Assembly (NCBI GenBank): GCA_035308965.1
Contig: DATGFN010000015.1
Span: forward strand, 121,762 to 185,761
Length of the DNA stretch: 64,000 nucleotides
Direction of reading: 5' to 3'
From: Terriglobia bacterium
GTDB lineage: Bacteria; Acidobacteriota; Terriglobia; UBA7540
Positions 13,516-64,000 of this stretch are shown one piece after another. The translations under genes and the position numbers were made by a program. Each line of letters opens with the position of its first letter. The stretch's first letter is position 1. The notes beneath the pieces are model-generated. The model ran no database searches and was not told the DNA's origin. It saw nothing but the letters and a program-made list of their open reading frames with translations.

Positions 13516-14871
13516 TTAGTTCTTGTGGAGGGAAGGAGCGCTTAGCTCAGCGGTGATTTCGCTGGAGATGGGTTTGGCGATTTCCTCAATGGCTTTAGGA
13601 GAGAGTCGCGGAGACATCTTGGCAACAACCAGGTAAACGATGGAATAAACTTGTGACGGATCGAGGGTTTGGGGCAATCCTGCCTCAGGAGCGGGAGCTG
13701 CTACAGCTGCTGGCGTCTCTTCCGGGATAAGCCCGGCATCCTGCGACACAGCAGGGGGCGCCTCCTCAGCGGCGGCGGGTTCTGGCTCAACCGCATGGGG
13801 AGCGAGCCGGACGCTCCCGGCAGCGGCTTCGCTTAACGAAAAACTTTCGAGTGTCGTTGGTGAAACCGGAGCGGATTCTTCCACTTCACTCGGCCCGGCC
13901 GCAGGAGCCGCTTCCGGAGGAGCTTGAATGGACATCGCTTCCGCGGATTGCTCCTCAAGGATGGGCGGGGGCGCATGCTCCGGAGCAGGCGCGAGTTCGT
14001 CGCTCAAAACCGGTTGCGCGATGTCCGCCGGCGCGCGAAACATAATGGTGCGCTCGGTAACATGCTCGTGCGGATGTTCGTGTTCCTCATGGTGCTCAGG
14101 GGCGGCTTGCTCTTCAATCAGCACCGGTTCGGCGGGCGCTGGAGTTTCCGTAGCCTGGATTACGGGCATCTCGGCGATAAATTCCGCCGGAGCTGCTGAA
14201 GCGTGGGGGTCTTCCACCTCAATGATGGGCTCTTCGGTGATCTGAGGAGCTGCCTCTATCACATGGGAAGGCTCAGGCTGAATTTCGAATTCAGCCGATG
14301 GCGCGGGCTCAGCAGGTGCAGGTTCAGCCTGAATCTCTTCCAGCGCCTCGGCAAATGCCATTCCGCCGCCGAATTGCGAGAAGTCCGGGGTGGCTTCTTT
14401 GGGGGCAATCTCGGGCTCTTCATCCACAGGCTCATTTACAAAAGTGGGTGGAGCTGCGGGTTTCACTACGGGAACGGGCTCGGGTTTGGCTGCGGCAGCC
14501 TCGGCGATGGCGAGGTATTTGTTTACCGTGGAAATCAACTCATCACGGTCAAAAGGTTTCTTGATCCGGGCGTCGGCGCGGACGCGCGATCCCCTTTGCT
14601 CGTCCAAAACGTCGTCATCACTGAAAACGAGGATTACGGGCACATTGGCATATTCCTTTGAGCCTTTGACGAATTCGCAGACCTCATAGCCGTCCTTGCC
14701 CGGCATGGCAATGTCAGCCAGAATCACCATGGGAAGAACGGTGGGCAGCTTCTTAATTGCGGCTACGCCGTTCGACACGGTGACAACTTCCAAGCCCTCG
14801 CCCGTCAATACTCCGCTGGCTTTCTTTTGAACGGTTGGGCTGTCGTCCGCGATTAAAACCTTACGCGCCAC
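13516..14871 (-). CDS. response regulator (CheY-like receiver) with about 330-aa Pro/Ala/Glu-rich low-complexity C-terminal region
   Basis: The N-terminus (MARKVLIADDSPTVQ...ILADIAMPGKDGYEV...KKPF) is a receiver domain. The remainder is a PAE-rich tract ending in a short conserved tail. Confidence 0.75.
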   Translation of the reverse strand: MARKVLIADDSPTVQKKASGVLTGEGLEVVTVSNGVAAIKKLPTVLPMVILADIAMPGKDGYEVCEFVKGSKEYANVPVILVFSDDDVLDEQRGSRVRADARIKKPFDRDELISTVNKYLAIAEAAAAKPEPVPVVKPAAPPTFVNEPVDEEPEIAPKEATPDFSQFGGGMAFAEALEEIQAEPAPAEPAPSAEFEIQPEPSHVIEAAPQITEEPIIEVEDPHASAAPAEFIAEMPVIQATETPAPAEPVLIEEQAAPEHHEEHEHPHEHVTERTIMFRAPADIAQPVLSDELAPAPEHAPPPILEEQSAEAMSIQAPPEAAPAAGPSEVEESAPVSPTTLESFSLSEAAAGSVRLAPHAVEPEPAAAEEAPPAVSQDAGLIPEETPAAVAAPAPEAGLPQTLDPSQVYSIVYLVVAKMSPRLSPKAIEEIAKPISSEITAELSAPSLHKN

Positions 14872-14981
14872 TCATGGCCTCCTGTTTTGGGGTCAATGAT
14901 TCGCCGCCGTGAGAAATACCATTTCGGGACGCTGAAGTCAAGGCGCAATCGCAGTCGTCTCATTTCGCAGGCCTCCGGAGC

Positions 14982-15407
14982 TTAAGGATAAACCCGATAA
15001 AGGAGCCAGTAAACCATCACTCCGGTAATGGATACATAGAGCCAAGCCGGGAGTGTCCATCGCGCGATGCGCTTGTGCAGGTCGAATCGTTTTTTCCAGG
15101 CGCGATAAAGCGTGGTTAGGATCAGGGGAACAATCAACGCCGCCAAAATTGTGTGTGAACCTAGTAAAGTGAAATAAAAGGGGCGAATCAGGCCCTGCCC
15201 CATGAAACGTGTGACACCATGATGCGCGTGGTACCAGAGGTAGCAGACAAGAAATAGCGAGGACGTCCCAAACGCCGATAGCATGCAGATTTTATGAGCC
15301 AGGATGCGTTTATTGCGTATGAAGTAGTAACCGAGGGTCAGCAGGACGGCACTGGCGGCGTTCAGCGAGGCGTCGAGCGCCGGAAAATCAGAGAGGGGAA
15401 GGATCAC
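14982..15407 (-). CDS. DUF420 family membrane protein
   Basis: 4-TM protein of 141 aa with the pattern LNAASAVLLTLGYYFIRNKRILAHKICM. DUF420 proteins commonly accompany heme-copper oxidase genes. Confidence 0.55.
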   Translation of the reverse strand: MILPLSDFPALDASLNAASAVLLTLGYYFIRNKRILAHKICMLSAFGTSSLFLVCYLWYHAHHGVTRFMGQGLIRPFYFTLLGSHTILAALIVPLILTTLYRAWKKRFDLHKRIARWTLPAWLYVSITGVMVYWLLYRVYP

Positions 15408-15468
15408 GGGTTGAGTTTACAGTTGATAGCTGACTGTTGAAAGTTAAAAACAAAGGCGAATAGCCGCC

Positions 15469-16362
15469 TTAAGCTTTATGGGCAATCAGGAAAAGCCTGC
15501 CTGATCCGAGCTTGAACGGCTCCAGGTCAAACGAGCTAAATGCTTGGGTGCGTGAGAATCCGGCCTCCTCGAGCAGGTGACAGATCTCTCGATAGGTGTA
15601 AACGCGATCGGATGAAGTTTTCTTCTCCTCTTTCCCGTTTCGCACAAAAGTGTATTCGGTTTCCATGCGTCCGTGAACGTGGTCCCACCGGTTCTCTTCA
15701 AGAAAGAGGATGTCGCCCACACGCACCCACTCGCGTTCTCGGACAATGGGCAGCACCACTTCTGCCACCCGGCTGGCATCGAGGACGAACCGGCCTCCCG
15801 TATTGAGGGCGCGAAAAACGGATTTCAGAAAACCGGCATGCCCCGCGTCATCGAAGTATCCGAAGCTGCCTCCCATACAGAAGGCCGCGTCAAAATGCTC
15901 CGCCCAATCCATGCGGCGCATATCACCTTGTTTCCAACCAATATTCATGCCCTTCGCAGAAGCCTTGCGCCGGCCCTCTTCCAGAAATGCCGGGGCAAAA
16001 TCGAGTCCGGTCACCTGGAAGCCGCGCGACGCCATGGCGAGCGAGAGCCGCCCTTCACCGCAGGGAACATCCAATACCTTTGCGGAGGGGGCGAGGGCGA
16101 GTACCTTCTGAAGAAAGTCCGCCTCGGCCTGGGTTTGTTCTTCGGAAAAAACCTGGCGCCACATGTCCAGGGCAATTCCGTCGAAAAAACTCTCCCACCA
16201 TTCTTGGGACACAATCCACCCACTTTTGTCGACAGATTCCTTGCGGTCGGACGTGGTTAACTCGAGGCTTGGCCGGAAGGCACACTGGGCGGCTCGGCGG
16301 AGTCCGGTTTCTTCTTCGCGTGTTCCATCGCCCGCTTTAGCTCTCCCGTGAAAACGGACCAT
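15469..16362 (-). CDS. class I SAM-dependent methyltransferase
   Basis: Motif I VLDVPCGEGRLSLAMA...GLDF. The true start is probably downstream of the track start, because the track ORF overlaps the upstream small gene. Confidence 0.7.
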   Translation of the reverse strand: MVRFHGRAKAGDGTREEETGLRRAAQCAFRPSLELTTSDRKESVDKSGWIVSQEWWESFFDGIALDMWRQVFSEEQTQAEADFLQKVLALAPSAKVLDVPCGEGRLSLAMASRGFQVTGLDFAPAFLEEGRRKASAKGMNIGWKQGDMRRMDWAEHFDAAFCMGGSFGYFDDAGHAGFLKSVFRALNTGGRFVLDASRVAEVVLPIVREREWVRVGDILFLEENRWDHVHGRMETEYTFVRNGKEEKKTSSDRVYTYREICHLLEEAGFSRTQAFSSFDLEPFKLGSGRLFLIAHKA

Positions 16363-55026: not shown

Positions 55027-56055
55027 ATGATTTCAAAACGCGGTAAGAACTTGGCCGCGATCGCTCTCTTGCTTGGGAGTTATTCAATCTGCAGCGCCCA
55101 GTCGCACGATCCGAAAAACCCCACGCCATTGGGGCCCGGCGTCAACAAGGGCAACGTCGACAACAAGGAAAATGGCCCGAATTATTACTACTTCTACGCA
55201 GGCCCGGGACACGTGGATTTGCATTATTCCTTCAAGGAAATGGGCGTCTTCGGGAATCCGATGCGGCAGTCGCTTAGTTTCGATCTTTATGGTGAGAGCA
55301 ACAACTTGATCATTCACAGCGCCATCGTTTCAGTGGAGAAGATGGAAAAGTTGTCCCAGCCCGGCGATTTAGGGTCACGGCATAAGCTGGTCCTTCGCGT
55401 CATTTCTCCGGAAACAACGCTCCGCTTGGGGGGCTATTACGAAATCGAAGTTACGGGGGCCGCGACGTTTGAAGGAAAAGCAACGGGCGCCAACACCAAA
55501 CCCGTAGACACGCAGCTCTATCATCCTTCCGGACCGTTAACGAAGCCGACTAATGATGGCAAGGGCGGGGAGTCCTCCGGCGGAGGAGTTTCGCTTTATA
55601 CCCCGCAAGGCTCTCTCTATCAGCCTGGAGTTTCTCTCTATACGCCGGTCGGCGCATTGACGAATGTGCAAGAAAGTCCCAAGCAATTGCGGCTGACGTT
55701 GGCCGCCGACATTCTGTTCGACTTTGACAAGGCAACTATACGTCCGGACGCCAAGGAGGCGCTCGACCGGGTTGCGGAGATCATCCGCTCCAAGAGCCGG
55801 GGAATCGTGAGCATCGAGGGTTTTACGGACTCCAAGGGCGCTGCGGATTACAACTTGCGCCTGTCCAACGCGCGCGCGGAATCGGTGGAGACATGGATGA
55901 TCGAGAATGAAGACTTGCATAGGGCGGGATTCACCACGCGGGGATTTGGGGCAACCCGGTTTGTCGCGCTCAATTCGAAACCGGATGGCAAGGATGATCC
56001 GGCAGGACGGCAGAAGAATCGCCGCGTCGAAATCATTATTCAGAAACAAGATTGA
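55027..56055 (+). CDS. OmpA-family lipoprotein/outer-membrane protein
   Basis: Signal peptide and a C-terminal OmpA_C domain (ILFDFDKATIRPDAKEALDRVAE...GFTDSKGAADYNLRLSNARAESV...NRRVEII). Confidence 0.8.
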   Translation: MISKRGKNLAAIALLLGSYSICSAQSHDPKNPTPLGPGVNKGNVDNKENGPNYYYFYAGPGHVDLHYSFKEMGVFGNPMRQSLSFDLYGESNNLIIHSAIVSVEKMEKLSQPGDLGSRHKLVLRVISPETTLRLGGYYEIEVTGAATFEGKATGANTKPVDTQLYHPSGPLTKPTNDGKGGESSGGGVSLYTPQGSLYQPGVSLYTPVGALTNVQESPKQLRLTLAADILFDFDKATIRPDAKEALDRVAEIIRSKSRGIVSIEGFTDSKGAADYNLRLSNARAESVETWMIENEDLHRAGFTTRGFGATRFVALNSKPDGKDDPAGRQKNRRVEIIIQKQD

Positions 56056-56098
56056 CGGCCCGAACCCATCGATGAAACTCTCAACAAAAGGAGCAATC

Positions 56099-56707
56099 AT
56101 GTTCTTCAAGAAAAACAGAGAAGCTGCAATTTTGCGAGTACTTGCCGGTGCGCTGGGAATATTCCTAGCGGCAGGCGCCGGAACTTTAGCTAAAGGCCGC
56201 TCTCCCGCATTGTTACCTGCGTGGATGTCCGGAGCTGCGGATCCGGGAGTTGATTCCGGCTGCCAGGCTGCACTGGACGCGGGCAACAAACTCTACACCA
56301 CCCCGTACCACATGTATGGGGCGGAAACCGTGAACGGAAAACCCGTGAACACCGAAGGGATTTTTGCCGGTGGCGCCCTATACGTTCTTGTCAACGGCAA
56401 GTGGTCCCTCAGCCCCGTTTCGCCGGAGGAAATGTTGAAGATGATGAAGGCGAAGGACCAGGGAAAGGAGAAAAATGGCAAGAACGGTGTGTGTCATTAT
56501 GTGCGCGATGAGTCAGTGAGTGGCGAAAGCGCGGCGCTCTACAGCACGCACGAAGAAGACGCAAAGGGAAAGACCGATGTCCAGAGCTGGGTTTCCAAGG
56601 GCAAAGGACTCCTCTTACGCCAGGAGACCGATGTCGACATGGGCGGAACAAAAGTCCACATCTCCTCCCGATTTGAATACAGCAACATACACGCGCCGAA
56701 ACTCTGA
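56099..56707 (+). CDS. secreted hypothetical protein
   Basis: Strong RBS aaaggag lies 7 nt before the ATG at 56099. A signal peptide (ILRVLAGALGIFLAAGAG) follows. The track ORF from 55907 overlaps the preceding gene. Confidence 0.45.
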   Translation: MFFKKNREAAILRVLAGALGIFLAAGAGTLAKGRSPALLPAWMSGAADPGVDSGCQAALDAGNKLYTTPYHMYGAETVNGKPVNTEGIFAGGALYVLVNGKWSLSPVSPEEMLKMMKAKDQGKEKNGKNGVCHYVRDESVSGESAALYSTHEEDAKGKTDVQSWVSKGKGLLLRQETDVDMGGTKVHISSRFEYSNIHAPKL

Positions 56708-56800
56708 AGAAACGGCTTCTTTTTGCTGACTCCAAAAAGGACAGGGGCATTTATCTTTCCGGTTATTCAGACTTCTACACTCCTGAAAAGATGAGGGTCT

Positions 56801-56834
56801 TGGTACGCCCGGAGAGATTCGAACTCCCGACCCC
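56801..56834 (-). other. tRNA 3'-end fragment (T-arm + acceptor 3' strand + ACCA), probable integrative-element attachment-site remnant
   Basis: Minus strand reads GGGGTC-GGGAG-TTCGAAT-CTCTC-CGGGCGT-A-CCA, a canonical T-stem/T-loop. No complementary 5' acceptor strand lies 70-90 nt upstream, so this is not a full tRNA. Confidence 0.5.
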
Positions 56835-57150
56835 TTGCTTCGTAGTTCAAAGAACATTGTATGCGGCAAACTGCAGGAATGGGAAGGAATACTGTTTCGC
56901 TCCTGTGTTCATGCGGGTCCAAGCGTACCTGAGATGATTTAGCGCAGCTTCTGCCGAATTCAGCAGATAGGCGCACACTGTGGAGAGTTAAGGGGGGTTA
57001 CGTCACAAAGCATGTCACAAAAATCGGCGATTCGTCAGCACCAGTTTCAACCTTGGAGGGGATGGACCTCTTGCAAGTGGCCGTACCGCCGAGGACTCCC
57101 ACCTGATTGATGCAATGGGTCATAAAGGATTTCTGGCCGGTCGCATAAGT

Positions 57151-57166
57151 TACTGCACATGTGCAG
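57151..57166. promoter_or_regulatory. 16-bp perfect palindrome ACTGCACATGTGCAGT upstream of an excisionase-type gene (candidate operator or recombination core)
   Basis: Read directly. It lies 78 bp upstream of the ATG at 57244 of the excisionase-family HTH gene. Confidence 0.4.
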
Positions 57167-57243
57167 TAGCTCCTGCAAGTCCCCTGTGGTACGAATGGTT
57201 GTGCCTGAATCAGGAAGTACGGAATTTTTCCATGTAGAGATCA

Positions 57244-57654
57244 ATGAATCCAAAACCTAATGAGATTCGATCGAGGGCGCGCCTAATATTGGCGGCCGAC
57301 AAATGGCGCCAATTAACGCAGCTATTACAAGAGGATGTCCCTAATTTGATTACGGAGGTAGAACGCCTGGAAGGGGAATTGGGCGAAATGAGCCGCGGAG
57401 CTCGAAGTAATCGATATGCGCCACCGGGGAGTGACGAATCTTCATATTGTGATCGCAGCAACAAGGAATTGTTAACCGTGAGGGACTTTGCGGGCCTGTT
57501 GGGCGTCACAGTAGCGTGCGTCCGGTCCTGGAGGCTCAAGCGAAAGATTAGCGCGGTCAAGTTGGGCCGCATAATTCGGATGCCACGGACTGAAGTCCAG
57601 CGGCTTATTGACGAGGGTATGAGTCCTGCGCGGCCCTTCCAGCAAGAGTTCTAA
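57244..57654 (+). CDS. excisionase-family helix-turn-helix DNA-binding protein
   Basis: The C-terminus (LLTVRDFAGLLGVTVACVRSWRLKRKISAVKLGRIIRMPRTEVQRLI) fits the excisionase-family HTH pattern. Confidence 0.6.
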   Translation: MNPKPNEIRSRARLILAADKWRQLTQLLQEDVPNLITEVERLEGELGEMSRGARSNRYAPPGSDESSYCDRSNKELLTVRDFAGLLGVTVACVRSWRLKRKISAVKLGRIIRMPRTEVQRLIDEGMSPARPFQQEF

Positions 57655-58435
57655 TGTCCAAGGGAACTACTCTTCAGTCCCGAAATCTCGGGCGCCGCGT
57701 TCAGAAATAAATTGGGACATGAAGTACCCAATGTCCAGTTGGCTGTATGGAGAATTCAACCAAACGCGCCCCAGATACGGTTTCTTGAGCGCATCCTCGG
57801 AGTGAAGTAATTTGCGGCCTTGACGGTTTTGTGCCCAAATTCACTACTGGCTGGGTCCAGGTCGATCTCTCCGATCTTCAGGAGATTTGTGGTTACTTTC
57901 TAATTGTCCTTTTCAGCCTGTTCGCGCCAAGCAGAGAGTTTTTCCTTAAATGCTTCCTTCGGGAGTTCGGCAAGGTTCTGCGCCCGAGAACTAAGGTCCT
58001 TGGAGATCCCAACCTGGGCTAAGGTCGGAATCTTTTCGGGCGGTCGTCGCACACGGCTGCCCGAAGGATCCTGCCCTTTTAACTGACCCCGAGTCCCCTT
58101 TGCCTTCGGCGATTCCTTTAGAAGCTCACCTAGCCTTCTTCCGGCTTAAATCCTGATAGCCGCAGCATCTATTTCGAGTTTTTTGTTTTTCGCCTCGCTT
58201 GCGTGGGCAAACAACCCCTCGGCTTTGTTGCGAATCATTTTGGTTTAATCGGCCAACTTTGCAAAAGCTATGGCTCGACAAACTGCATCATAACAAGCAA
58301 GAGGAGTCATAATTCCTCGCATTATTCGGCATTTGCGGCTTCCGTTCTTAGTTGGTGCTCCTTGCATCGCATAATTCATCTGGCGAGAATTTAGGCTTGA
58401 GAGCGGCTTATAAATGTGCTAAAAGTATTAGCGCA

Positions 58436-58669
58436 ATGCAGACCTACTCAACCAAACAGGCAGCAGCCCTCGCCGGGATTCATTGGGTGACGCTACACCG
58501 CTGGCTGAGGGACAAGAAGGTTAGGCCTTCCATCGCCATTCCGATAGATGGCCGAACGCTTTGGCGCTGGACTGCGGCTGATGTGAAGAGGGTTCGCAAA
58601 TACAAGACTGCCCACTATCGCAAAGGCAGAGGTCGCAAGAAGGCTCAAAAGAAAAGCGGCAACCGTTGA
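58436..58669 (+). CDS. AlpA/excisionase-type HTH protein (Xis-like)
   Basis: YSTKQAAALAGIHWVTLHRWLRDKKV...GRTLWRWTAADVKRV. It is small and basic, and sits immediately upstream of the recombinase. Confidence 0.55.
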   Translation: MQTYSTKQAAALAGIHWVTLHRWLRDKKVRPSIAIPIDGRTLWRWTAADVKRVRKYKTAHYRKGRGRKKAQKKSGNR

Positions 58670-58723
58670 AGCGTGAACTTCAACGGCTGCCTAACCACAC
58701 CCAAGCCACAGGGGGGCTTGAAT

Positions 58724-59386
58724 ATGGCTGTCAGAATCGTACCGCAAGCTGTACCATCTTCCAAAACCAGAAAAGAAATCTCGCGAGCTGCAATTTACGC
58801 CCGGGTCTCGACTTCAAACAACGGCCAGTCCCCAGAAATGCAATTGCGCGAACTTCGTGAGTTCTGCGAGCGCCGGGGCTGGTCGGTCGCCAAGAAGTAC
58901 GTGGATGTCGGAATTTCCGGTAGCAAGGAAGATCGAGTCGAACTGAACTGCCTCATGGCTGATGCACATCGCAGGCGATTTGATACGGTCATTGTTTGGA
59001 AATTTGACCGCTTCGCCCGGTCTGTTTCTCACTTGCTTCGCGCCCTCGAAACTTTCAAGGCCCTTGGGATCGAATTCGTCTCCCTCTCGGAACAAATGGA
59101 CACCAGCACGCCTGCCGGCAAGATGGTCTTCACTGTCCTCGGTGCCGTGGCGGAACTCGAACGCAGCTTGATTTGAGAAAGAGTCCGCGCCGGAACCCGT
59201 CACGCTCGCTTGAAAGGAAAGAAACTCGGACGACCGCGGGTCGCCGTGGACACTATCAGCGTGGCAGCTCTGCGCGCTCAGGGGCAAAGCTGGAAAGAAA
59301 TCTCCACGAAGTTAGGAATCGGCAGAGGGGACGCGCAGCGAGCCGCCGGCAGAATGGCGCAGGGCTGCGAAGCAACAACTCAATAA
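58724..59386 (+). pseudogene. serine recombinase (resolvase/invertase family) with in-frame TGA at 59174-59176
   Basis: Catalytic N-terminus (AAIYARVSTSNNGQS...) followed by ...AELERSLI-TGA-ERVRAG.... Resolvases are conserved as ERSLIRERxxAG, so a single CGA to TGA change explains the stop. A C-terminal HTH follows (SWKEISTKLGIGRGD). Confidence 0.65.
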
Positions 59387-59599
59387 GCGCTTAAGCAAAG
59401 GCAGATTCTTGAGCGGCGCGACTAGAGCCTCATAAGAGATGGGGCCAATTTGGATATTCCTGATGACTCGGGCCGTCTTTCCTGCAGCGAGATGGATAAG
59501 CTGTGGTTACACTAGGGCGGCCACAAGGGTCGCCCCTACGATGGCATTTCTTCACGGCTTCAGGCGCCGGTCCGTTCCAGAATAGCGCCGAGCAAGGCC

Positions 59600-59947
59600 T
59601 CACCGCGTGGCTGCGTCGTAGCCCAGAATTTTTACCGCGAAAAGAAAAGTGCCGTCCTGGGATTCGGGTGTTTCAACACGGACAACTTCGCCTTTACAAC
59701 CCACTTCGAGCCCGGCTCTTCCAGCGACGGAAGCGGGCAGCGAGTAGTTCATGTGAATCGGTGTGTGAACTTTCATGGTTTGTTCTGCACGAAAGAGGAT
59801 GCCGCCGGAACTGATATTCGACGCGGTTCCCAGGCACCAGGCGGTCTGTTCTGGCTGACGAAACCTCAAAAGCATTTCCAGTGGGACACGCCCTGAGCGG
59901 CGAGCCTCGCGGCGTTTAAGTTTAAAAAGCTGCCTCAATTTATTCAT
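59600..59947 (-). CDS. PilZ domain protein
   Basis: RREARRSGRVPLEM...GTASNISSGGILF fits the PilZ RxxxR and D/NxSxxG motifs. Confidence 0.6.
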   Translation of the reverse strand: MNKLRQLFKLKRREARRSGRVPLEMLLRFRQPEQTAWCLGTASNISSGGILFRAEQTMKVHTPIHMNYSLPASVAGRAGLEVGCKGEVVRVETPESQDGTFLFAVKILGYDAATR

Positions 59948-60062
59948 CGAGCATCCTCCTCTGGAGATTCGTGGGAAGCTGATCAGGAAAGACGACGGAC
60001 CCGTCGGCCGACGGGTCCGCGCTACGCTTGCTGGTCGGCTTCGGTTTTGTGGTCACCCCTCA

Positions 60063-62111
60063 TTAAGGTGCGGCGACAGTCAGGCTATAGACACGGGTAC
60101 TGGTATTGCCGTTGGAATCTGTGGCCTGAAGGGAGAACGTATAGGTCCCAGCGGGAGCAGTGACGGTTCCGGTGATGTAACACACATTGGCGCTCGCGGG
60201 GCTAAGAGCCAGGCCGGCAGGAAGCGTGCTGCCCGAGGGGACGCTCCACGTGACAGGCGGGAAACCGCCCGTAGCGAGGAAATCCGTGCTATATGCCGCC
60301 CCCGATGTTGCACCTGGAAGAACACCGCTATTGTAGGAAGCGAGATACAACGGCGGTATGACAGAGACCGAAAAGGTGTAGGAGACCACGTGCGAAGCCG
60401 AGTCACCCACTTGGACTGGGAACGGAAAGGTGCCGCTTGAGGTCGGGGTTCCGGAAATCACTCCGGCAGCAGAGAGCGTCAACCCGGGGGGCAGCGACAC
60501 GCCCTCGTAAGTCCAAGTGTAAGGAGGGGTCGCGCCCGACGCCGTCAACGTCGAACTGTAAGGCGTCCCTTGGTGGGGCGACGGAGGGCTAGTCGTGCTT
60601 ATTGTAAGCCCTCCGGTGGACGGTGGAGCGACGACGGCCAGAGTATAGGCCTTGGTAGCGATATGCCCGGCGGTATCTGTGGCCTGAAGGGAGAACGTAT
60701 AGTTCCCGGGGGCAGCGGTTACCATTCCAACGCCTGCCGAGAGTCTACAAGTATTGGCACTCGAGGCGCTCACATTCAGGCCGGTCGGTAGTGCGCTGCC
60801 CGAGGCCACGCTGCACGAGAGTGGCGTGAACCCACCCGTAGCGAGGATATCGATGCTGTATGCACTTCCCTGTATTTCTGAGCCTGGAATAACACCGTTT
60901 GAGTAGGATGCGAAGGCCAATGTCCCTGGTACTGTGGCTGTAAAGGTGTAGGAGGCCGTGCGCGAAGCCGAATCAGTCACTTGGACTGGGAACGGAAAGG
61001 AGCCGCTCGCGGTCGGGGTTCCGGAAATCACCCCCGCAGCAGAGAGCGTCAAGCCGGGAGGCAGCGACACGCCCATGAAGGACCAGGTGTAAGGCGCAGT
61101 CCCACCCGTCGCCGCCAGGGTCGCGCTGTAGGCCTGACCGGGATAGCCGGGCCCAATTGAAGTGGTCGTGATGCCCAGCGGAGCCGCCGACGAAATCGAA
61201 TAATTGTAGGTGGCCGAATGCGACGCCGAGTCACTCACTTGGGCTGTGAACGAATAAGAACCGCTCGCCGTCGGCGTCCCGGAAATCGCTCCGGTACTCG
61301 AGAGCGTAAGGCCGGTAGGCAGCGTCCCACTGCTCAGGGTCCAACTGTAAGGCGAGGTCCCGCCCGTCGCGGCCAGGGTCGCGCTGTAAGCTGTCCCGGT
61401 GGTGCCGGCGGGAACCGAAGTGGTCGAAATCGCCAGCGGTGGGGTGGGCGGGGCTCCCATCGCAATCGAGGTCGAATAGGTGTAGCTGGCCGAGTTTGAG
61501 GCCGAATCTTTCACCGCGCCTACAAAAGAATAAGAGCCGCTGGTGGTAGGGGTTCCTGAAATCGCCCCGGCAGCAGAGAGGGTCAGGCCGGCCGGCAGCG
61601 CCCCGCTGCTCACGGACCACGTGTAAGGCGCAGTTCCACCTGTTGCCGTCAGGTTGGCGCTGTATGCTGTCCCGGTGGTGCCGATGGGAACTGAAGTGGT
61701 TGAAATCGCCAGCGGGCTGGCGGTCGTGTTGGTTGTGGTGGTCGTCGAAGACGTGGTCGCAGGCGCAAGTATGGTAAACGTTACCGAATTCGTTGTGACA
61801 TATGTTGTAGAGGTTTTGGTGACGGTACTCGGATACCTTACTGCGATGGATACTGTGCCGGCGGTGGCAAGCAACGTGGCCGGCACCGTAACCGACAGCT
61901 GCGTACTGCTGACGCCGACTGTGGATTGAGCGACGCCGTTCCACAGCACCATCGACCCGCTTCCAAAGCTTCCATTGACCGTCAAAGTGATGCTCCCGCT
62001 CCCGGCGGTCGCGCTGGTGGGCGAGATGGAGATGGTGGTGGCACTAAAAGCCGAAGACGCCAGAACCAGCACCATGACGAGAGTTGCGATTCCCAGCTTA
62101 AATCGTGACAT
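60063..62111 (-). CDS. secreted cell-surface protein composed of at least five tandem putative-Ig (He_PIG-like) domains
   Basis: RBS AAAGGGAGGGG lies before the ATG at 62111. After the signal peptide there are repeated units of about 90 aa (ISTTSVP.GTTGTAYSA.L.ATGGT.PYTW..S.G.LP.GLTLS..G.ISGTPT.SGS.). Confidence 0.7.
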   Translation of the reverse strand: MSRFKLGIATLVMVLVLASSAFSATTISISPTSATAGSGSITLTVNGSFGSGSMVLWNGVAQSTVGVSSTQLSVTVPATLLATAGTVSIAVRYPSTVTKTSTTYVTTNSVTFTILAPATTSSTTTTTNTTASPLAISTTSVPIGTTGTAYSANLTATGGTAPYTWSVSSGALPAGLTLSAAGAISGTPTTSGSYSFVGAVKDSASNSASYTYSTSIAMGAPPTPPLAISTTSVPAGTTGTAYSATLAATGGTSPYSWTLSSGTLPTGLTLSSTGAISGTPTASGSYSFTAQVSDSASHSATYNYSISSAAPLGITTTSIGPGYPGQAYSATLAATGGTAPYTWSFMGVSLPPGLTLSAAGVISGTPTASGSFPFPVQVTDSASRTASYTFTATVPGTLAFASYSNGVIPGSEIQGSAYSIDILATGGFTPLSCSVASGSALPTGLNVSASSANTCRLSAGVGMVTAAPGNYTFSLQATDTAGHIATKAYTLAVVAPPSTGGLTISTTSPPSPHQGTPYSSTLTASGATPPYTWTYEGVSLPPGLTLSAAGVISGTPTSSGTFPFPVQVGDSASHVVSYTFSVSVIPPLYLASYNSGVLPGATSGAAYSTDFLATGGFPPVTWSVPSGSTLPAGLALSPASANVCYITGTVTAPAGTYTFSLQATDSNGNTSTRVYSLTVAAP

Positions 62112-62441
62112 AACCCCTCCCTTTAAGGTCGAATGCGGGCCGGAATTTGCCGCGCTCCTGCATGACCTCTTCACTACAGTTTTGAATTAGGGTCAGCCCT
62201 ATACCGGCCCTTGTTGGAATAAACGCAAACGGCGGGCGAAAAACCGCAAGGTTTGAAAAAATATTTTGCAGGGGCGCGGCTGGAGTGTTGGAGCGTCGCT
62301 CTATGCGCGTCGTTTTCTTTAAGACGGTCGCAGACTGCCTCTACCGTCAAAAGTCCGGCCATGGGAGCCCAAAAGATTCAAAAAACTTCCCTGAAATGAA
62401 CGTGGTAAGATACCCGCCAGCGCAAAACCAACGAGGATTTA

Positions 62442-63026
62442 ATGGCAGGGCTGTCCGGAAGCGATGTATCCCAGCTTTTGCTGGCTTGGAACGGAGGAGA
62501 CGACCGCGCGCTGGAAAAGCTCATGCCCATCGTGTACGACGAGCTGCGCCGGATGGCCCACCAGTACATGGCTCTCCAGCAGCCGGGCCACACCCTGCAG
62601 AGCACCGCGCTGGTGAATGAGGTTTATCTGCGTCTGGTGGATTCTGCCAATGCCAGTTGGCAAAATCGAATTCATTTCTTTGCAGTGTGCGCCCGGGCGA
62701 TGCGGCAGATTCTGGTGGATTGGGCGCGGTCCCGCCAGGCGCAGAAGCGAGGCGGCGAAGTCCGGCCGCTTCAGCTGGACGAACCCTTGGCCGTCACCGA
62801 GGCGCAGGATGTGGACCTGATCGCTTTGGACCAGGCCTTAAATTCCCTGGCCGCCATGGATCCCCGCCGCAGCCGGGTGGTGGAACTGCACTTCTTCGGG
62901 GGCCTCGACCTGGAGGAAACGGCCGAGGTGATGAAGGTTTCCAGCGATACGGTGCTGCGCGACTGGAAGCTGGCCAAGAGTTGGCTGCGCTGTGAGATGA
63001 GCGGAGAAAAGTTGGATGGATCCTGA
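62442..63026 (+). CDS. ECF-type RNA polymerase sigma-70 factor (TIGR02999-like)
   Basis: Sigma-2 and sigma-4 regions ([28 protein letters not shown]...; C-terminal [28 protein letters not shown]). Confidence 0.85.
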
Positions 63027-64000
63027 GCGTTGGCAGAAAATCGCCGAGATCTACCAGGCCGCGCTTGACGAGGAACCAGGCCGCAGAGCTGCTTTCCTGG
63101 AGCAAGCCTGCGGCGGGGATGACGCCCTGCGGCGGGCCGTGGAAAAGCTGCTGGCACAGAACGAGAAAGACGATGACTTCCTGGAAGTGGCGGCGCTGGA
63201 CGTGGCGGCCAAGGGGGTGGCTCAGGATCAGGCCCGCCATCCTGAGGCGCCGGTGCAACCTGACGTCCTGGTGGGCAGTACGATCTCGCATTACCGTGTC
63301 CTCCAAAAGCTGGGTGGCGGGGGCATGGGGGTCGTTTACAAGGCGAAGGACACGCGCCTGGGCCGCGAAGTGGCTCTGAAGTTTCTGCCCAGCGTCACAA
63401 GTATTGGTTCGTCAGGAAACGCGCAAGATCCCGCCCACAGCCCACTGAGTGCGGCGGCCCTGCATGATTCACAAGCGCGCGAGCGCTTCCAGCGCGAAGC
63501 GCGCGCCGCCTCGGCACTCAACCATCCCAACATCTGTACGGTTCACGACATTGACGAGTTTGAGGGCTACCCCCTCATCGCCATGGAGCTTCTGGAAGGC
63601 CGCACCCTGAAAGAACTACTGGTAGGGGCGGGCCTCGCCCCCGCCCATGGTCGTCCACAAGGGGCGCCCCTGGCGATTGAAAACCTCCTCGATCTCTCGA
63701 TCCAAATTGCCGACGCTCTGGACGCGGCCCACAGCAAGGGCATCATTCACCGGGACATCAAACCGGCCAACATTTTCGTCACCAGCCGCGGCGTGCCCAA
63801 GGTTTTGGATTTTGGCCTGGCGAAAATACAGGAATTAGGAATTAGGAGTTCGGAATTAGTGGCCGACCCGTCATTGTCCAGGAGCGAAGAGAAAACGTCC
63901 GATCCCCCCCTAATTCCTAATTCCGAATTCCTAATCCCTGGTTCACATCTCACCACCCCAGGCAGCGCCGTGGGCACTGTGGCCTACATGTCGCCGGAGC
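63016..64000 (+). CDS. Ser/Thr protein kinase; 3' end outside window; ORF overlaps the sigma-factor gene by 11 nt
   Basis: ATG at 63016 (ATGGATCCTGA overlap). Kinase motifs are present: [13 protein letters not shown]...[20 protein letters not shown], ...GTVAYMSPE. The track ORF is absent because no stop falls inside the window. Confidence 0.8.
63831..63937. repeat. AT-rich palindromic repeat (GGAATTAG units, about 27-bp arms) inserted in-frame inside the kinase activation-loop coding region
   Basis: Left arm ggaattaggaattaggagttcggaattag and right arm ctaattcctaattccgaattcctaatcc. 107 nt of about 35% GC inside a gene of about 65% GC. The reading frame stays open through it. Confidence 0.6.

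Follow-up and report, generated by a model that had tools for sequence, protein, structure and literature searches.

Small elements that combine an integrase with a primase-helicase include the P4-like satellites and the PICI-like islands. The Tn3/gamma-delta resolvases and the Gin/Hin invertases are small serine recombinases in which an N-terminal catalytic domain (YARVST) is followed by a C-terminal helix-turn-helix. In islands inserted into tRNA genes, the regenerated tDNA and the displaced fragment mark the two ends (PMC4383910). Anticodon-centred sites account for 2083 of the 3919 islands catalogued by Islander (PMC4383910). In the class A islands of this catalogue, the element regenerates an intact tRNA, the displaced 3' fragment lies in direct orientation at the far end, the integrase is directly beside the tRNA, and the identity block runs from the anticodon loop to the 3' end (PMC4383910).

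The window, that is, the whole 64-kb stretch of DNA analysed here, very probably contains the left end of a decayed island of ~11 kb, produced by a tyrosine-integrase insertion into the tRNA-Arg(ACG) gene of a Terriglobia (Acidobacteriota) bacterium (Table 1). A repeat pair, an intact tRNA, an integrase remnant, pseudogenes and a conserved HTH-recombinase module are observed. The regenerated tRNA, the displaced fragment and the identity block of class A are found again at this locus, and the place of the integrase beside the tRNA is taken by a remnant. This integrase has shrunk to a catalytic-domain tail of ~45 residues, and two other genes of the element are pseudogenes. Moreover, neither an empty site nor an excised form was found, so that the island is a fossil and not an active member of the class. 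A decayed tRNA-Arg island is a real feature, but of an ordinary and well-understood kind.

Table 1 Features of the repeat-bounded segment (window coordinates)
Feature	Position	Strand	Role or basis
Displaced 3' fragment of tRNA-Arg(ACG), anticodon loop to CCA	56801-56845	-	Distal attachment-site repeat (attR-type)
Tandem GTCACAAA pair, 12 bp apart (57002, 57014)	56992-57021	+	Candidate arm-type integrase-binding sites, distal arm
Perfect 16-bp palindrome ACTGCACATGTGCAGT	57152-57167		77 bp upstream of the 136-aa gene
Intact 136-aa gene, C-terminal excisionase-family HTH	57244-57654	+	Pfam HTH_17, PHROG 66
Pseudogene of a ~220-245-aa phage/island family	57834-58310 (from 58310 to ~57834)	-	Translation, homologues, PHROG 33995
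Intact 77-aa HTH gene, MerR/HTH_17-like	58436-58669	+	First gene of a conserved pair with the recombinase
Inverted repeat/hairpin GGCAACCGTTGAAG-N6-CTTCAACGGCTGCC	58658-58691		Overlaps the stop of the 77-aa gene, just 5' of the recombinase ribosome-binding site
Small serine recombinase (resolvase/invertase type), TGA-interrupted	58724-59386	+	Pfam Resolvase
Middle of the repeat-bounded segment	59600-64000, on to ~67.2 kb beyond the window		Profile matches
PilZ gene	59600-59947	-	
He_PIG Ig-repeat protein	60063-62174	-	
ECF sigma factor	62442-63026	+	
1072-aa Ser/Thr kinase	After the ECF sigma factor, start inside the window		
5'-truncated ppk, integrase remnant, intact tRNA-Arg	Outside the window		

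The tRNA piece, read on the minus strand from 56845 to 56801, is CTACGAA GCAAG GGGTC GGGAG TTCGAAT CTCTC CGGGCGT ACCA. ARAGORN found no tRNA gene in the 64-kb window and no Rfam match to a tRNA was obtained at E<=10 in 55500-61000. This rules out a complete tRNA at the site, which is therefore a true fragment, as the preliminary description had it. Although the latter correctly recognized a 3' end without its 5' half, the exact match is 45 nt long against tRNA-Arg(ACG), not 34 nt. The full-length donor with the same 3' end, which it had proposed to look for, is located on the same contig, just past the window end (L001 15397-15473, minus strand, window-equivalent 67838-67914). This region was read from a 245-kb metagenome contig that is 100% identical to the window and extends past its end. 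The fragment (L001 4360-4404) and the 3' part of the complete tRNA (L001 15397-15441) are identical at 45/45 positions, lie in direct orientation on the same replicon, and constitute a perfect 45-nt direct repeat with a spacing of 11,037 bp. The identity block takes in the 7-nt anticodon loop (CTACGAA), a recognized crossover sublocation, from its first base onwards and ends with the CCA of the tRNA. Given this spacing, the repeat-bounded island measures ~11 kb (56.8-67.9 kb) and reaches outside the window, far past the boundary at 59.4-62.1 kb (a length of 2.6-5 kb) first proposed.

At the far end, the remnant of the tyrosine integrase adjoins the 3' end of the intact tRNA-Arg and, in the Pfam Phage_integrase model of 172 positions, covers 126-168 only. 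It is thus placed like an Islander-type integrase, but it is not an intact gene. The remnant is fused to, or head-to-head with, a ppk gene that retains its C-terminal domain 2 only. Twelve relatives of the integrase were fetched (60-83% identity), two of which, read full-length, have ~395-400 aa. Nine occupy the same convergent position against a tRNA-Arg(ACG), tRNA-Arg(CCG) or tRNA-Pro gene, and the other three, on short contigs, show no tRNA. The tRNA footprint was left by the tyrosine integrase and not by the serine recombinase.

Each end of the island has a tandem GTCACAAA pair, the two pairs being oriented alike, and the motif has only three sites in the 64-kb window. The 30-nt block that carries the distal pair is 90% identical to a block within the integrase remnant at the opposite end. 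In eight related integrase 3' ends, the GTCACAAA block is nearly invariant at the DNA level while its flanks have diverged. These pairs may represent arm-type integrase sites, the candidate block having the sequence GGTTAYGTCACAAACCAYGTCACAAA.

The following history would account for the present arrangement. The island would have entered tRNA-Arg(ACG) by site-specific recombination catalyzed by its tyrosine integrase, with a crossover at the anticodon loop and a replacement 3' half of the tRNA brought by the element. The original 3' half would have been displaced by 11 kb and would now be the 45-nt fragment. A deletion probably took most of the integrase together with the 5' part of the neighbouring ppk. 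The MT-A70-family gene was hit by nonsense mutations at three codons and is without its 3' part, and a TGC>TGA nonsense mutation in the serine recombinase cuts off the DNA-binding domain. The island is no longer mobile. The idea of a fixed, immobilised remnant tied to tRNA integration was essentially right, since both the donor tRNA and a tyrosine-integrase remnant beside it were found.

The reconstructed empty site (67-nt tRNA plus left-flank junction) gave 0 exact matches in metagenome contigs, and the exact-protein look-up of the left-flank gene returned the same organism only. When synteny was followed through citrate synthase in 80 genomes, the eight closest (L003-L010) had neither tRNA-Arg(ACG) nor the left-flank genes nearby. 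Because relatives are devoid of this neighbourhood, they offer no presence/absence comparison, and the insertion is deduced from the repeats instead of being seen by comparison.

Downstream of the fragment, the excisionase-family gene announced in the preliminary description is indeed present. Like Xis-type proteins (HTH_17, TIGR01764), the 136-aa product has an HTH_17 domain above the Pfam cut-off (32.0 bits, 1.5e-7, cut-off 27). Its score against TIGR01764 'excise', 26.7 bits, is just below the cut-off of 28.8. A search of 5.8 billion proteins gave just two homologues besides the copy of the organism itself, namely a 136-aa protein that is 51% identical along its whole length and an 89-aa protein with 70% identity; JGI labels a homologue 'excisionase family DNA binding protein'. 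On the other hand, the 136-aa protein differs from Xis-type proteins by a ~70-residue N-terminal extension and by the location of its gene at the island end remote from the integrase, and the 77-aa HTH protein of the island scores under the Pfam cut-offs. The 136-aa protein is a candidate Xis/excision factor or regulator.

The MT-A70-linked pseudogene had been overlooked in the preliminary description. One member of its family carries an MT-A70 methyltransferase domain, and the match to PHROG 33995 is at 2.3e-6. Its frame contains TAA at 58245-58247, TAA at 58146-58148 and TAG at 57900-57902, and its 3' part is lost. All three stop positions are occupied by sense codons in the 56 homologues (42-55% identity). 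L097, the closest intact relative, has a gene of this MT-A70-linked family whose strand, with respect to integrase and tRNA, is the one seen here, which links the two ends of the island.

Next in the segment comes the two-gene module. The 77-aa protein stays below the Pfam cut-offs (HTH_17, 23.6 against 27; MerR_1, 21.5 against 21.6) and matches PHROG 66 'excisionase and transcriptional regulator' at 1.4e-7. Neither HTH protein of the island matches Phage_AlpA (Pfam, E<=0.01), and the label 'AlpA-like' first given to the 77-aa gene finds no support. An HTH gene of 76-83 aa is located directly 5' of the recombinase in the relatives L083-L091 and L130, and the counterpart in L095 is called at 88 aa. 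The 34-bp inverted repeat is nearly invariant in four relatives, although the HTH proteins there share only ~37-52% identity with the 77-aa protein. The recombinase is of the resolvase type, as first described: it matches Pfam Resolvase PF00239 at 4.1e-47 over positions 1-145 of 145, has a conserved YARVST motif with the serine nucleophile, and is 75-84% identical to many intact Terriglobia proteins of 196-222 aa. Its alignment to the solved Tn3 and gamma-delta resolvases is end to end, and that to the Gin invertase spans residues 60-194; close relatives are named 'DNA invertase Pin-like' in the sources. In the element it presumably served as a resolvase/invertase and not as an integrase. Unlike members of the Tn3/Hin group, it has a stop that divides the catalytic from the DNA-binding part, and a small MerR/HTH_17-like gene with a conserved inverted repeat invariably lies before it. 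To our knowledge, the presence of a small HTH gene and an inverted repeat before the recombinase is neither the Tn3 nor the Hin arrangement. Relatives on viral contigs (<=71% identity) have neither the HTH gene nor the hairpin.

Near the recombinase, no partner site for the 34-bp inverted repeat was found, nor were res, hix or gix-like partner sites or an invertible segment. Inverted repeats flanking the gene (58692-58708 and 59493-59509) are not kept in relatives. An invertible segment beside it, suggested by opposite gene calls in the relatives L087 and L088, was rejected, the two DNAs being collinear at 99.96% and the difference lying in gene calling only. The HTH-recombinase unit is very common in Terriglobia and was met in three independent tyrosine-integrase islands, namely the tRNA-Arg island of the window and two tRNA-Pro islands, those of L083 and L130, with a position at the end remote from the integrase. 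That the HTH gene, the inverted repeat and the serine recombinase form an uncharacterised self-contained recombination module is nevertheless unlikely. If they do, the module may be a hitch-hiking cassette, or an island-end resolvase acting at the invariant inverted repeat, of which the window copy is dead.

As an alternative, the 11 kb between the repeats would not derive from one element. We give such a composite origin, by accretion or replacement, somewhat less than an even chance. An L097-like element could have exchanged its replication genes for an incoming block with the HTH-recombinase module, the PilZ-to-ppk genes or both; otherwise, a deletion could have removed the internal junction of two tandem elements. 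In L097, a PrimPol-helicase gene and two others separate the MT-A70-linked family gene from the integrase. The integrase of L097 beside a tRNA and its PrimPol-PriCT-AAA_25 replication protein resemble those of the P4-like and PICI-like elements; in the window island the replication gene is absent, and between the MT-A70-family gene and the integrase stand the HTH-recombinase module and host-like genes, as a composite would have it. The module occurs in many unrelated contexts. In addition, L083 and L084 are 98.7% identical only rightwards from 87 bp upstream of the HTH gene and are unrelated leftwards, which also points to accretion. The composition of the segment argues in the same direction, since the GC content differs sharply between the left 2.1 kb (0.49-0.53, a lower value that also speaks for an acquired island) and the middle (0.599); the GC content and the tetranucleotide correlation (0.862) of the middle are both beyond the range of equal-sized pieces from the rest of the window. 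The head-to-head meeting of the truncated ppk and integrase genes is a further point in favour. Against a composite, a second integrase is absent and there is no internal tRNA-like remnant between the repeats, local alignment scores being no better than those of shuffled sequences. Likewise, a second decayed tRNA remnant at 57079-57105, as a tandem element might have left, was rejected, since local alignment did no better than shuffled sequence there or elsewhere in the island. Composite origin would in any case refine, not contradict, the insertion of an island into tRNA-Arg(ACG).

A point against the island as a whole is that the genes of its middle 7.8 kb, for PilZ, the Ig-repeat protein, the ECF sigma factor and the kinase, together with the ppk fragment, resemble ordinary host genes. 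They may be either cargo or a secondary insertion.

The in-frame TGA of the recombinase, at 59174-59176, is identical in three assemblies. It is real, and the frame does continue through the C-terminal HTH, as had been claimed: 70 more codons are open and still align with relatives, although the reading from the catalytic to the C-terminal DNA-binding domain is interrupted. The residue replaced is not the conserved Arg first suggested. It is Ala (GCC) in 16 of the 17 close relatives and Gly in the other one, Cys (TGC) in L095, the closest relative at the DNA level, and Ile in the solved Gin invertase. The codon went from GCC to TGC, as in L095, and then to TGA. The gene is otherwise well kept, with one change at 96 otherwise invariant positions, so that either its inactivation is recent or the truncated product is tolerated. 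On the 3' side of the TGA, the ratio of window-specific nonsynonymous to synonymous changes is 6:7, compared with 3:18 pooled in three intact relatives; these small counts suggest that constraint has been relaxed there. We infer that the TGA is inactivating.

The recombinase would not be dead if the TGA were read through or recoded, for instance as selenocysteine, or if the 150-aa product were functional. The 70 open codons, the Cys codon in L095 and the single change at otherwise invariant positions could be read in this way. Nevertheless, shuffled sequences fold better than the 76-nt stretch that surrounds and follows the TGA (mean of -21.2 versus -14 kcal/mol, z = +2.37), hence there is no SECIS-like hairpin. 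The stop position is non-catalytic and is Ala in most relatives, and nonsynonymous changes are raised 3' of it. The neighbouring gene has TAA, TAA and TAG, which indicates that the region is decaying generally. Finally, a 150-aa product would be without the DNA-binding domain present in the solved Gin and gamma-delta structures. A live recombinase is thus very improbable. Stop-codon reassignment, as in a phage-like element, is ruled out because all three stop codons occur in frame.

It is scarcely credible that the tRNA piece is an ordinary pseudogene, born of a partial duplication or deletion unrelated to integration and with mobile genes nearby by coincidence: tRNA gene fragments are common in prokaryotic genomes (PMC9897764), but here a full tRNA copy in direct orientation has an integrase remnant against it, the anticodon loop is precisely where the identity block begins, both ends contain matching tandem GTCACAAA sites, and nine integrase relatives stand beside a tRNA gene in the same geometry.

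For the tRNA-Arg island, the significance is mainly one of annotation. An ~11-kb segment of an uncultured soil acidobacterium is marked as horizontally acquired and now immobile, and three pseudogenes, unannotated or mis-annotated, are identified. The locus also displays clearly an anticodon-loop attachment site, together with candidate arm-type sites, of an integrase family whose targets in Terriglobia are tRNA-Arg/tRNA-Pro genes. Of all the parts, only the recurring HTH-hairpin-recombinase module might merit more study.

The palindrome ACTGCACATGTGCAGT, proposed earlier as an operator, is absent upstream of both genes homologous to the 136-aa gene, and these upstream regions are unrelated to that of the island gene; a conserved operator was therefore discarded. 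The palindrome itself does exist. It is one of seven perfect 16-bp palindromes in the window, where ~1 is expected, and its position is the one argument for an operator role, which is a conjecture.

The segment between 56.8 and 67.9 kb is a genuine, well-delimited but decayed tRNA-Arg island of the standard kind. All the features that the preliminary description listed are present in the sequence. By exact-protein look-up, a 245-kb JGI metagenome contig (3300005538, Ga0070731_10000042) is 100% identical to the window, with two other assemblies also matching; its proteins carry source annotations to Terriglobia, and the fetched locus (L001) runs 9 kb beyond the end of the window. There, a complete tRNA-Arg(ACG) was found whose 3'-terminal 45 nt recur unchanged in the tRNA fragment at the left end, in direct orientation and with a spacing of 11,037 bp. 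The check proposed in the preliminary description thus turned out positive and bears out its central idea, a decayed tRNA-targeted island, while the extent needs correcting to the repeat-bounded segment. The first base of the anticodon loop is also the first base of the repeat. A regenerated target with a displaced fragment is the signature used for mapping islands in tRNA genes, and anticodon-centred sites are the most frequent class in Islander, with 2083 of 3919 islands (PMC4383910). ARAGORN detected no tRNA in the whole window, nor did a permissive Rfam scan in 55500-61000; hence, the left copy is a fragment and not an overlooked gene. A Logan contig from the same sample has both termini inside the two repeat copies, as expected of an assembler break at repeats, and is not counted as evidence.

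Features of the island and of its surroundings
Feature	Window position	L001 position	Strand	Remarks
tRNA 3' fragment	56845->56801		minus	anticodon loop CTACGAA, 3' anticodon stem, variable loop, T arm, 3' acceptor strand, ACCA
30-nt block	56992-57021			two GTCACAAA motifs 12 bp apart; 146 bp inside left end
Palindrome ACTGCACATGTGCAGT	57152-57167			perfect 16 bp, intergenic
136-aa gene	57244-57654			HTH_17 above Pfam cut-off
MT-A70-linked pseudogene	58310->~57834		minus	N-terminal ~150 residues; family members have 220-245 aa
77-aa gene	58436-58669			HTH_17/MerR-like match, weaker than that of 57244-57654
34-bp inverted repeat GGCAACCGTTGAAG-N6-CTTCAACGGCTGCC	58658-58723			with the ~30 nt that precede the recombinase start
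Serine recombinase	58724-59386			resolvase-type, match 4e-47; in-frame TGA at 59174-59176
Island middle (7.8 kb)				PilZ, He_PIG Ig-repeat protein, ECF sigma factor, 1072-aa kinase, ppk fragment
ppk, C-terminal domain 2	66483-67557 (equivalent, outside window)	14042-15116		head-to-head with integrase remnant
Second copy of 30-nt GTCACAAA block		15322-15351		within integrase remnant, 45 bp inside right end, same orientation
tRNA-Arg(ACG), complete	67838-67914 (equivalent)	15397-15473	minus	ARAGORN
Seven 16-bp palindromes	12788, 18597, 29748, 35466, 46998, 57152, 60000

An ORF borders directly on the intact tRNA, at its 3' end. It matches only positions 126-168 of the 172 of Phage_integrase; the RFYDLRH and HxxxxxxxY motifs are kept, and some 240-300 N-terminal residues are lost. 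The ORF and ppk face each other with their truncated 5' ends, and a single deletion seems to account for the lost 5' parts of both genes. A metagenome scan yielded 12 relatives of this remnant at 60-83% identity, two of which, read entire, are ~395-400 aa long. Nine are convergent against tRNA-Arg(ACG), tRNA-Arg(CCG) or tRNA-Pro(TGG); the other three lie on short contigs where no tRNA was seen. Hence, the serine recombinase is not the tRNA-targeting enzyme, and the footprint, first linked to that recombinase, is reassigned to the integrase. In the locus with its closest intact relative (L097), a gene of the same family as the MT-A70-linked pseudogene lies on the same strand relative to integrase and tRNA, which places the left end of the island and the integrase remnant in one element type. 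A PrimPol-PriCT-AAA_25 replication gene, likewise present in L097, is absent from the island studied here.

The two 30-nt blocks fit arm-type integrase-binding sites, which would represent both arms of a former attP. Only one further GTCACAAA occurs in the 64-kb window, and no integrase coding sequence surrounds the left-end copy. The block GGTTAYGTCACAAACCAYGTCACAAA is almost invariant in the DNA of eight related integrase 3' ends, whereas the flanking coding sequence has diverged. The family that conserves it (L097-L108, on Terriglobia-type contigs) targets the same three tRNAs.

The pseudogene, which the preliminary description did not list, carries in-frame TAA, TAA and TAG where its homologues have sense codons, and the remainder of the gene is gone. 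Its family comprises 56 homologues at 42-55% identity, one with an MT-A70 domain. The 16-bp palindrome proposed as an operator for the 136-aa gene is present, but an operator role remains conjectural: the window holds seven such perfect palindromes versus about one expected from shuffles, and the regions upstream of two homologues of the gene share nothing with it. The palindrome at 60000 sits between the PilZ and Ig-repeat genes.

The serine recombinase does contain an in-frame TGA, but this does not replace a conserved Arg as first read. The 17 close relatives (67-80% identity over the whole alignment) are intact, with 194-222 aa, and have Ala (16) or Gly (1) at this position; the solved Gin invertase has Ile. 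At the DNA level, this codon is GCC in the relatives, TGC (Cys) in L095, the closest one, and TGA in the window, so that the final step was a single C>A change. A Cys aligned with TGA can indicate selenocysteine; such recoding was rejected, as the downstream RNA folds less than shuffled sequences (z = +2.4). Outside the stop, the recombinase is well preserved: of 96 invariant positions, a single one is changed. Past the TGA, window-specific changes are 6 nonsynonymous : 7 synonymous, and 3 : 18 in three intact relatives pooled. The stop is probably recent and, because it removes the DNA-binding domain, probably inactivating. In L095 (1100-1600), the recombinase is frameshifted near RGW/YVD, and the HTH-recombinase module directly adjoins a gene homologous to the 136-aa one, with the intervening pseudogene absent; it is a second copy, decayed independently.

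The small HTH gene (76-83 aa; 88 aa as called in L095) lies upstream of the recombinase in all close relatives examined; its former label, AlpA-like, needs correcting to the weaker HTH_17/MerR-like match. The inverted repeat between the two genes and the stretch to the ribosome-binding site are nearly invariant in four relatives, even though their HTH proteins are only ~37-52% identical to the one here; the loop differs in length as well as sequence. In L130 and L131, a more distant clade, a different imperfect repeat takes its place. A dyad, GCTAA-N5-TTAGC (58417-58431), overlaps a -10-like element just before the ATG of the 77-aa gene, with no Shine-Dalgarno; it is a possible operator for autoregulation of a leaderless transcript. 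The equivalent position of L086 (~9700) carries GCTATA-N2-TATAGC. The -35 element is TTGAGA here and TTGACA in four of five relatives.

Two tRNA-Pro islands (L083, L130) carry the module at the end distal to the integrase, and in one locus (L086) it lies between tRNA-Lys and tRNA-Trp; several loci have no tRNA in reach. The preliminary description named intact recombinases in a non-tRNA context as evidence against its reading; these loci agree with that only in part, and the direct-repeat evidence is unaffected. No partner recombination sites or inversion were found for the module in the loci compared. L083 (9626) and L084 (3014) share 98.7% identity to the right of a point 87 bp before the small HTH gene and are unrelated to the left of it, which makes this point a sharp recombination boundary on the module's edge. 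About 200 nt 3' of the recombinase stop are shared by L083 (10664-10900) and L089 (3878-4110) and missing in the window, indicating that the module here is shortened on its 3' side too.

Clearly lower GC (0.49-0.53) is confined to the left ~2.1 kb of the island. In GC (0.599) the middle exceeds every equal-sized piece elsewhere in the window, and in tetranucleotide correlation (0.862) it falls below them all; the repetitive Ig gene contributes to both values. Its genes could be either cargo or the product of replacement or accretion; no internal tRNA remnant marking a tandem junction was found between the repeats. Long imperfect inverted repeats of GGAATTAG-type units (pairs I1, I3, I6 and I8; L001 11388-11503, window 63829-63944) are part of the sequence that codes for the 1072-aa Ser/Thr kinase.
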